Of a stretch of 64,000 bases of DNA, positions 1 through 1,640 are shown piece by piece; the stretch's first letter is position 1, and each line of letters starts with the position of its first letter. Source of the DNA: an uncultured bacterium (lineage in GTDB: Bacteria > Babelota > Babeliae > Babelales > Babelaceae); NCBI GenBank assembly GCA_963713855.1, contig OY970209.1, forward strand, positions 160,001 through 224,000. Reading direction: 5' to 3'. A model generated the notes under the pieces. The model searched no databases and had not been told where the DNA came from. It saw only the letters and a program-made list of their open reading frames with translations. The translations under genes and the position numbers were made by a program.

Positions 1-184
1 AGGGCAATTGAAATTTTAAAGCTCGCGCAGAGGCTAAATCTTTGTCGCTGACCAAATTATTGGCGGTTAAGTAAGCCTCAAGCGTCAGCCCAGCAGCCTG
101 ACTTTCTTTACGGTACTCATCATACCGCTCTTTCGTAAGCGCTCCCTGCTCACGCAAGATCTCCCCTAGAGTTTTTTCTACCAT
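1..184 (-). CDS. N-terminal part of a GspE/PilB-family secretion ATPase (MshEN/T2SSE_N-like N-terminus); runs off the window edge
   Basis: Manual translation from ATG at 184: MVEKTLGEILREQGALTKERYDEYRKESQAAGLTLEAYLTANNLVSDKDLASARALKFQLP. It has the LGEILxxxG pattern twice (second copy degenerate) followed by LP, typical of GspE/PilB N-termini. A GGGGAGA RBS lies just upstream. The ATPase domain is not visible in the window. Confidence 0.7.
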   Translation of the reverse strand, partial: MVEKTLGEILREQGALTKERYDEYRKESQAAGLTLEAYLTANNLVSDKDLASARALKFQLP

Positions 185-331
185 ACATTCTCCCCAAAAT
201 CTTTCACAAAGTAGAATATCATAGCACATGCTATTTGCTAGAGCACGCCAATAATCGTAAACCTGTGTTCAAAAAAATTATATTCTCTTATAAATATATT
301 ACAAAAGTCATTACATTTATAGTCCTTGTTC

Positions 332-660
332 TGTCCCCAAATAAAAAATCAGGGAAGTAAGCGCCTACGCGGCGTGCGGCAGGACATTGTCCTGCACCTG
401 TTGCTTGTTTTGCATGTTACACATGCTTATTGTCTATGAGATAGACCGGAAAATCCGGTCTATCTCATTAGGCACATTTACTAAGAAAGGGAATTCCCTT
501 TCTTAGTAAATTAAACAACCATAAAAAGTTTAAGAAGGGTGTGGGGCAAGGGTCATAAAGCCTGAGTCCAGGCTTATGAGCCCTTTCATAAGAGTCAATA
601 CTATGACTCTTATGATGCCGCGTAGGCGCCTCTTTCTCTTTGACTTACTATTTAGGGACA
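332..660. repeat. Nested inverted-repeat (multi-hairpin) non-coding element; candidate structured RNA or MITE-like/cruciform DNA element
   Basis: Imperfect terminal arms at 332-374 and 616-660, with a perfect 13-bp core GCGCCTACGCGGC (361-373) / GCCGCGTAGGCGC (617-629). Internal hairpins at 379-395, 412-426, 436-468, 476-511, 511-533, 548-585 and 586-615. No ORF is listed here. Confidence 0.9.
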
Positions 661-782
661 CTCTTTAGAAACAAAAAACGAGCCAAATAACGGCCTACTT
701 GCTTGATTATCCAATGTATACTAACCTAAAAGAAGAAAGCTACTAATAATCAGCATTTAATCTTTTTAACCAGAAATCACCT

Positions 783-1640
783 ATGAACATTTTTCCCTTT
801 TTTCTAGCATCCGCTCTTTTGTGCCTTTTGGGGTGTGGGGCGTCTTCTAACCGTAAGCACGTTCGACAAGTTGATGCTGCCTATCGTGCGCTTCCCTCAA
901 AAGCTATTAGGCAGACAACCCAGGATGAAGCTCTGAGTGCCAAAAAATATCATAAAGAGCACGGGGACTTGGATTTGGCTACAAAGTATCTTGAGCACGC
1001 TTTAGCAAAAACAACTGACCATCAGCAACGAAAGGATTTTATCTTGGAGCTTGCTGACATGTACATGGAGCTCGGAGTTAAGGATAAAGCCAGTAGGCTC
1101 TACTCTCAATATAAGACCCTCTACCCGGGTAGCCCGCTTATCAAATATGTACTCTATCAAGAAGTTGCCGCAAATTACGGTGATACCCTTTCAAGCGCTA
1201 AAGACCAGACAAAAACAAAAGAAGTTATAAAGCTTGCAAAAACGTTCCTTGAAGAATTTCCGGACGATGCTGAATATGCGGCTAAAGTGAATACCATTCT
1301 TGGCGAGGCTTCATTAAAAATTCTAAGAAATGAGTTTATAACGGTTACATTCTATTTACATAAATACACCTATGCTCCAGATGCGAGTTTACTTAAAGCT
1401 GCAAAACAGCGCTTGGCCCATCTTATAAAAGAGTATCTTCACCTTATTCCGGACAACAATGAGCTTTTAAAGCTTGATGACTCTCTAAAAGCTCAAGATG
1501 ATGCACCGACATACGCCGGTCTTAAAACGATAGCCGATACCATTGAAGCGTATCTTGGTCAGCATCCAGAAGTTGAAGATACTTTTCTAGCGCGCTTTTT
1601 TACCAGTAGGCGTCATGAGCAATCGGCAAATCGGGCATGA
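783..1640 (+). CDS. bamD: Outer membrane protein assembly lipoprotein BamD-like (TPR)
   Basis: Lipobox LLGC, TPR-like helices, and YPGSP and KDQTKT...FLEEFPD..YA motifs typical of BamD/YfiO. Confidence 0.7.
   Translation: MNIFPFFLASALLCLLGCGASSNRKHVRQVDAAYRALPSKAIRQTTQDEALSAKKYHKEHGDLDLATKYLEHALAKTTDHQQRKDFILELADMYMELGVKDKASRLYSQYKTLYPGSPLIKYVLYQEVAANYGDTLSSAKDQTKTKEVIKLAKTFLEEFPDDAEYAAKVNTILGEASLKILRNEFITVTFYLHKYTYAPDASLLKAAKQRLAHLIKEYLHLIPDNNELLKLDDSLKAQDDAPTYAGLKTIADTIEAYLGQHPEVEDTFLARFFTSRRHEQSANRA

Follow-up and report, generated by a model that had tools for sequence, protein, structure and literature searches.

A 64,000-nucleotide (nt) stretch of DNA, hereafter the window, from an uncultured bacterium of the family Babelaceae (GenBank assembly GCA_963713855.1, contig OY970209.1, positions 160,001 to 224,000) carries near its start a 339-bp element built largely of inverted repeats. 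This element is very probably a transposable element of the miniature inverted-repeat type (MITE) whose arms come from the termini of an IS5-family, IS427-group-like insertion sequence (IS) and whose cargo is a cassette of hairpins. A preliminary description, made from the letters of the window, had left the choice between an undescribed large multi-branch non-coding RNA (ncRNA) and a non-autonomous mobile element of MITE-, REPIN- or retron-like type, and taken together these two alternatives were partly supported. The MITE-like option was upheld by 21 dispersed copies, arms matching an IS5-family IS, TA or CTAG at the ends and orthologous sites that are empty in a sister species. Comparisons were made with the organism's own genome (G000, 1.52 Mb in a single contig) and with that of a sister species of the same genus (G001); structure and modules were compared over 20 aligned copies, and ends were surveyed in 19 complete copies.

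Copies, arms and target sites

The preliminary description had pointed to BLASTN as a way of counting copies, and a blastn comparison of the region with its own genome returned 21 loci, with best high-scoring segment pairs 77-91% identical. Its remark that nothing comparable occurs elsewhere held within the window, the 20 further copies, of about 300-400 bp, lying elsewhere in the genome. Alignment with these copies and with IS termini set the true ends of the window copy at 327 and 665, and the open reading frames (ORFs) that overlap it encode 30-43 aa only. In its size, terminal repeats, number of copies, non-coding nature and link to an IS, the element agrees with the published criteria for MITEs (Minnick 2024, PMC10969869). 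A GC-rich 13-mer, searched with up to two mismatches, formed 19 forward/reverse pairs genome-wide, spaced 202-302 bp apart, and outside the pair each of the 19 complete copies carried one type-A and one type-B arm. G000 yielded no autonomous copy, the longest stretch between two paired 13-mers being 302 bp.

A parent-type IS was present in the sister species (G001:C2:1252025-1252833), 809 bp long, with 16-nt terminal repeats that are 81% complementary and with TA on both flanks. The consensus of the B arms agreed with the left terminal repeat (IRL) of this IS at 23/24 positions, a value reached by 0/2000 shuffles, and that of the A arms agreed with the right terminal repeat (IRR) at 22/30 positions without gaps (1/2000 shuffles as good). 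When the B arm was compared with the whole of G001 by blastn-short, the best match fell at the left end of the IS (C2:1252021-1252045, 23/25, E 0.002). A 23-nt IRL pattern, allowing up to three mismatches, was then sought in 41 genomes of the family and gave five hits in G000, all in B arms, and one in G001, the IS itself, with no mismatch; there were none in the other 39 genomes, and the reversed control gave one hit. A match to a known Rfam family or IS end had been named as the test of novelty; no Rfam family came near its threshold, and an IS end was found in the IS5-family termini.

The two ORFs of the G001 IS encode 68 and 157 aa and match DUF4096 (74.8 bits) and DDE_Tnp_1 (54.1 bits), consistent with a putative transposase, and NCBIfam NF033580, 'IS5 family transposase', was matched at 149 bits (cut-off 110). 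A second IS of G001, 52% identical to it, is flanked by TA within CTAG. In the published account, the IS427-group ISs of Paracoccus are 832-865 bp long, with two overlapping ORFs and with direct repeats of 2 bp in all but one, which has 4 bp (PMC3281130). The G001 IS, of which one copy is available, agrees in these properties with the IS427 group, within the IS5 family. An IS630-like IS of G001 (four copies of 1.14 kb with TA flanks) was rejected as a parent, its termini being unlike the arms.

TA adjoined 26 of the 38 ends of the complete G000 copies, within CTAG in 19 cases and TTAG in four. This is the pattern expected for duplication of TA in YTAR, although a palindromic repeat of 2 bp is indistinguishable from target preference. 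The TGT and ACA that the preliminary description took for ends lie five bases inside the termini, which in this copy are degenerate.

Gene order is heavily rearranged between G000 and G001, and coding DNA is about 74% identical. At only four of the 21 sites do the orthologues on either side lie within 2 kb of one another in G001, and all four comparable intervals there are without the element and without the motif. The window site is one such case: the intergenic region measures 151 bp in G001 and 553 bp in G000, and the bamD-proximal stretch of about 90 bp to the right of the element can still be aligned with G001.

All copies are intergenic, and several flanking ORFs terminate a few codons inside an arm. 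Ten of the 21 lie between convergent genes, an arrangement that makes up 18.8% of spacers overall (binomial P 0.003); five lie between divergent and six between tandem genes. Nine of the 21 were found within 175 kb (G000 405-580 kb), where 2.4 would be expected (Poisson P 0.0009, for an interval picked post hoc), and local hopping, or a region that tolerates insertion, may underlie this clustering.

The hairpin cassette and its relatives

The nested inverted repeats of the preliminary description were recovered as drawn, including the 13-mer pair, the stems of H1, H3, H4 and H7 and the bulged H6 (Table 1). Its folding check was carried out on both strands. As RNA, 326-674 folded at -165.6 kcal/mol on the plus strand (z -14.4) and at -170.3 kcal/mol on the minus strand (z -16.7), and as DNA the plus strand of 327-665 folded at -92.5 kcal/mol (z -14.3); in each case 0/100 shuffles were as good. 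Of the seven hairpins described, five stood as features of the family. H2 (GCATGT/ACATGC) was found in the window copy only, the same stretch in other copies folding at -0.6 to -4.5 kcal/mol with different pairs, and the TTAAAC/GTTTAA hairpin (511-533) was marginal, with -0.5 kcal/mol or nothing in other copies.

Table 1. Features of the element and its margins in the window
Feature	Positions	Strand	Basis
Whole element, one of a 21-member MITE family	327..665		blastn against own genome; ends set by alignment
Left outer arm, type B, probably from IRL of an IS5-family IS	327..360	+	IRL match
GC-rich 13-mer GCGCCTACGCGGC, left cassette boundary	361..373	+	19 forward/reverse pairs in genome
Hairpin H1, GCAGGACA-t-TGTCCTGC	379..395		perfect stem
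Hairpin H2, private to window copy, not a family feature	412..426		folds of other copies
Hairpin H3, perfect 15-bp stem, best-conserved module	436..468		pairing across 20 copies
Hairpin H4, perfect 18-bp palindrome here, 14-16 bp in other copies	476..511		copy alignment
Hairpin H6, bulged, about 16 bp	548..585		copy alignment
Hairpin H7, perfect 12-bp stem, optional module	586..615		copy alignment
Inverted 13-mer GCCGCGTAGGCGC, right cassette boundary	617..629	-	13-mer pair
Right outer arm, type A, probably from IRR of an IS5-family IS	630..665	-	IRR match
TA at right terminus (C-TA read from outside), expected target dinucleotide	666..667		survey of ends

The cassette is modular. H1, H3 and H4 occur in nearly all copies, H6 in two forms, of which the shorter, H6b, is found in eight copies, and H7 at its usual position in 9/20 aligned copies. 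In four other copies (22311, 430969, 974581 and 1197400) the loop of H1 is extended by an insert of 66 nt with two hairpins. These four belong to different subfamilies on the copy tree, and the insert is either an old polymorphism or the product of exchange between copies. No solo cassette modules were found outside copies in G000.

For the analysis of pairing, 77 base pairs were followed through the alignment of 20 copies. Base pairing was kept in 94.5% of cells, compared with 33-47% in slid controls, and 11 pairs were changed on both sides, compared with 3.4 +/- 1.2 in shuffles (0/500 as high). In H4 8/15 pairs were changed on both sides across copies, with 97.6% of cells paired, and the window copy shows there one compensated substitution and a compensated one-pair insertion; about four of the H4 double changes derive from that single compensated indel. 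Diversity was 0.10 at stem sites and 0.19 at unpaired sites. In H3, where 97.5% of cells were paired over the 20 copies, the corresponding values were 0.035 for the stem and 0.45 for the loop, and the loop AAAAT is replaced by its reverse complement, ATTTT, in two copies. Single-sided stem mismatches were symmetric (9 G-T and 7 A-C), which argues against selection on a strand-specific RNA.

The orientation of the cassette within the arms also varies. The arm beside H1 could be assigned in 17/20 aligned copies and was of type A in 10 and of type B in seven, the window copy being of type B. Both orientations are seen in one supported sister pair (94/96) and inside every subfamily; inversion of the cassette between the 13-mers was thus a recurrent event.

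Related to the G000 cassette is a family of about 40 copies in the sister species; the two share the motif pair (CGCCTRYGCGGC) together with the first hairpins next to it. The G001 cassettes have different inner hairpins and no IS5-type arms. Their ends show tandem 17-nt GC-rich motif units and, on one side, short GAATT/GAATC-like repeats in variable number. When the inverted motif pair was sought at a spacing of 150-330 bp in the 41 family genomes, 10 exact cases were obtained in G000 and 10 in G001; there were none in the other 39 genomes, and the control gave none. Judged from these comparisons of sequence, the G000 element is a composite, a genus-specific hairpin cassette within IS-derived termini, and since all complete G000 copies have both arms the composite would have formed once and then multiplied.

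Origin of the family and competing explanations

In the mechanism that we propose, the outer arms (about 34-36 bp) would go back to the two terminal repeats, left and right, of an IS427-group-like IS. They would have been bound on double-stranded DNA by the DDE transposase of such an IS, which would have inserted the element at YTAR and duplicated TA, a step drawn from the known behaviour of that IS group. The passenger between the arms is a set of near-perfect hairpins, five or six in number, with the inverted GC-rich 13-mer at either limit. Once inserted, the cassette behaves as palindromic DNA, which has turned round repeatedly between the 13-mers; single hairpins are likewise met in reverse, and the stems keep their pairing by two-sided changes, perhaps through templated repair within palindromes or through selection for the fold.

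The source of the transposase was sought in G000. DDE_Tnp_1, DDE_3, rve, Y1_Tnp and RVT_1 (PF00078) each gave no match there, and IS proteins compared with G000 by tblastn gave nothing at E up to 1; as a control, Y1_Tnp (PF01797) was detected in 6/14 reference genomes. The family is therefore an orphan in G000, which has no IS5-type transposase, and is probably a fossil. The copy tree is star-like, with terminal branches of median length 0.058, and points to an old burst, after which the source of transposase was lost; with the gene absent and copies that differ by about 10-20%, the family looks like the fossil of such a burst.

The recombinases of G000 are one Xer-like enzyme of the tyrosine type and one large serine recombinase, which is in fragments and was for this reason rejected as an invertase. 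TnpB relics occupy three loci in G000, and G001 has seven TnpB matches. The 13-mer motif did not adjoin the recombinase or TnpB loci of G000, nor the Y1 or TnpB loci of G001. A TnpB/IS605 link was rejected, as no TnpB locus adjoins the motif and the one G001 cassette about 0.7 kb from a TnpB gene lies within chance. An IS3-type (rve) relic beside a truncated G001 cassette was likewise rejected as a parent and read as a secondary insertion; there (G001:C2:439060-439900) the truncated cassette is followed by a frameshifted IS3-type transposase relic without its 5' part. Relics of other mobile elements in G000 lie at C1:1385770-1386970 and C1:1495440-1496740, where a TnpB gene is split into ORFs of 97 and 269 aa and the large serine recombinase is broken into three ORFs. 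The mobile DNA of the two species contrasts sharply, G001 being rich in ISs (19 DDE_Tnp_1, 7 Y1_Tnp and 1 RVT_1 matches, the four IS630-like copies and several serine recombinases).

Several observations weigh against a MITE with IS5-family arms. The sister species has spread a homologous cassette without the arms, and IS5-type transposition thus leaves part of the family's biology unexplained. The matching IS is single-copy and in another species, and it may be a mere relative of the true parent; its putative transposase is split over two ORFs, and the A arm agrees with IRR at only those 22 positions. TA is missing from 12/38 ends, and it is too short and common to prove duplication. Intergenic DNA has diverged too far between the species for a precise empty site or exact junctions to be aligned, and no copy shows signs of recent movement. 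Lastly, one G001 cassette (C2:668681-669010) lies directly downstream of the orthologue of the gene that flanks G000 copy 480720 on the right; this coincidence was judged to be chance, about one such case being expected, and shared ancestry with later homogenisation is a possible alternative.

An unlikely, though not negligible, explanation is that the cassette itself is the functional mobile unit, a genus-specific REP/BIME-like mosaic with inverted 12-13-mers at its limits, which some structure- or site-specific enzyme would recognise, move and invert, and which in G000 was caught between IS ends. In its favour are the roughly 40 armless G001 cassettes with the same motif pair and first hairpin. 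The motif pair is the sole part conserved between both species and is restricted to the genus, its G001 form occurs as tandem 17-nt units, orientation switched several times on the copy tree, and compensatory change maintains the stems. However, the two IS-derived arms of all 19 complete G000 copies explain the spread in that genome, where solo modules were not found outside copies, no Y1 transposase was detected and the recombinases are the one Xer-like tyrosine enzyme and the one broken serine enzyme described above. Plain recombination between inverted repeats of 13-17 bp would moreover suffice for the inversions. In a wider form of the idea, which we hold to be improbable to a similar degree, the cassette would be a genus-wide element in its own right that hitch-hikes in an IS427-type MITE, with inversions, flips and compensated stems arising by an unrecognised enzyme or repair route acting on extruded hairpins or cruciforms and not by passive decay.

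The ncRNA alternative, recast as a multi-copy family of large structured RNAs with a defined strand and hairpins under selection for the RNA fold, would account for the extreme folding z-scores and the compensatory stem changes, and the plus strand of the cassette does fold better as RNA in 15/20 copies, with G-U-rich long-range pairing. We nevertheless consider it very unlikely. The stems are perfect Watson-Crick palindromes with the symmetric mismatches noted above, the cassette stands in either orientation relative to arms and genes, the only variant in the proposed long-range helix disrupts a pair, and no copies were met in the 39 further genomes of the family that were searched. The best Rfam 15 match in window 1-1200 reached 25.6 bits, against gathering thresholds of 64-211, and the matches were single-hairpin look-alikes; ARAGORN found no tRNA or tmRNA in the whole window, as the preliminary description had said. 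Mobility by way of a RAYT, as for a REPIN or REP, or by way of a Y1 (HUH) transposase acting on folded single-stranded DNA, as for elements of the IS200/IS605 type, might be suspected from the hairpin-rich anatomy, the TnpB relics of G000 and the Y1 transposase genes of G001. REP heads carry GTAG, and GTAG is also contained in the reverse 13-mer. The lack of Y1_Tnp matches in G000, the absence of the motif beside the Y1 or TnpB loci of either genome and the long terminal inverted repeats, which match a DDE-type IS and are unlike those of IS200/IS605 elements or REPINs, make this highly improbable. The retron-like option also fell, together with group II intron RNA, as G000 has no reverse transcriptase match (PF00078). 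An assembly or amplification fold-back artefact, which has in its favour the palindromic nature of the sequence only, is effectively refuted by 21 diverged copies at different loci with different flanks and by a related family in an independently assembled genome.

Intrinsic termination was rejected as an explanation. The region 150-850 holds two terminator-like sites, compared with 0.8 +/- 0.8 in shuffles, and one of them lies inside the element, at the copy-specific H2. A distant-mode blastn comparison of the element with plasmids and phages gave no match. Exact-pattern searches gave no hits for the A arm in metagenome contigs and none for the H3 hairpin in genome contigs, both searches being ones from which records of the own genome may be excluded.

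The window copy and likeness to known systems

The window copy interrupts a divergent promoter region, and the gene context of the preliminary description was confirmed. On the right is a gene for a YfiO/BamD-like lipoprotein (PF13525, 36.6 bits). The left neighbour is the 5' end of a gene whose G001 orthologue is a T2SSE ATPase (PF00437, 481 bits), and on this ground it is taken as a type II/IV secretion ATPase. The arms pair at 332-351/641-660 (80% complementary) and 351-373/617-639 (83%). The left arm begins with two degenerate bases, TG where GG is expected, and the 23-nt IRL pattern matches 325-347 with three mismatches; the left dinucleotide (325-326) is CT, also degenerate, so that TA adjoins this copy on a single side. 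Immediately beyond its right end, 669-698 (30 nt) is 73% identical to 339-368 in the inner left arm, which might be a chance likeness in A-rich DNA or a vestige of an older arm. On the minus strand at 681-695, between the element and the bamD-like promoter region, there is a terminator-like hairpin with a T run that points away from bamD.

The candidate for a large novel ncRNA is thus replaced by a documented MITE family. The kind of element is already known and is ordinary selfish DNA; the unusual part is its elaborate hairpin cargo. The family is a clear case of an orphan MITE, its parent-type IS having survived in a sister species only, and as a MITE with a second type of repeat as cargo it suggests a possible route by which palindromic repeats that lack an enzyme of their own could spread. 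It makes up about 7 kb of the intergenic DNA of a reduced genome and occupies promoter regions as well as the 3' ends of convergent genes, which matters for annotation and for expression studies in this lineage. Besides the secretion ATPase/bamD-like site, one such position is that of the copy at G000:C1:561465-561834, upstream of groES; the groES-proximal promoter stretch is conserved in G001, without an element there. The compensated stems and the cassette inversions form a small natural data set on the evolution of long palindromes in bacterial chromosomes. For the combinations of words tried, no literature on miniature inverted repeats or insertion sequences in Dependentiae turned up.

REP/BIME, REPIN-RAYT and pneumococcal BOX elements are modular mosaics of hairpins with optional modules, extragenic, at the 3' ends of genes and with an inverted GC-rich short motif. 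The same mosaic structure, site preference and inverted motif are found here, but G000 has no RAYT or Y1 transposase, the units are not REP palindromes of 20-40 nt, and the outer termini belong to a DDE-type IS. Among the large structured ncRNAs of bacteria, Rfam includes OLE, GOLLD, ROOL and HEARO/omega RNA. The element resembles them in length (about 300 nt) and in its many helices, and differs in having no covariance-model match, 21 dispersed copies, no strand bias among mismatches and transposon termini at both ends.

The Correia element (CREE/NEMIS) of Neisseria is itself an orphan MITE with a TA target. Like the present family it has MITE terminal repeats closing a long hairpin, length variants and insertions beside genes; unlike it, it is of unrelated sequence, measures about 100-200 bp and has no internal series of perfect hairpins. 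A review reports that inversion of Correia elements is possible and that transcripts are cut by RNase III at the terminal repeats. In BrickBuilt, a MITE of Porphyromonas gingivalis, an internal repeat passenger likewise stands between small inverted-repeat ends, in about 19 copies that are all intergenic, yet that passenger is a 23-nt tandem minisatellite and not a set of palindromic hairpins (PMC4596501). The IS427-group-derived MITEs, with IS1248, ISPaes1 and others of Paracoccus as the parent type, share with the G000 family a length below 500 bp, the absence of coding sequence, the termini of a two-ORF IS of about 0.8 kb, TA ends, many intergenic copies and a stable stem-loop (PMC3281130 for the parent type; PMC10969869 for the definition of a MITE). 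The G000 family differs from them in its long arms, in a parent-type IS that is absent from its own genome and present only in the sister species, and in an interior that is a foreign stack of hairpins and not the deletion remnant of an IS.

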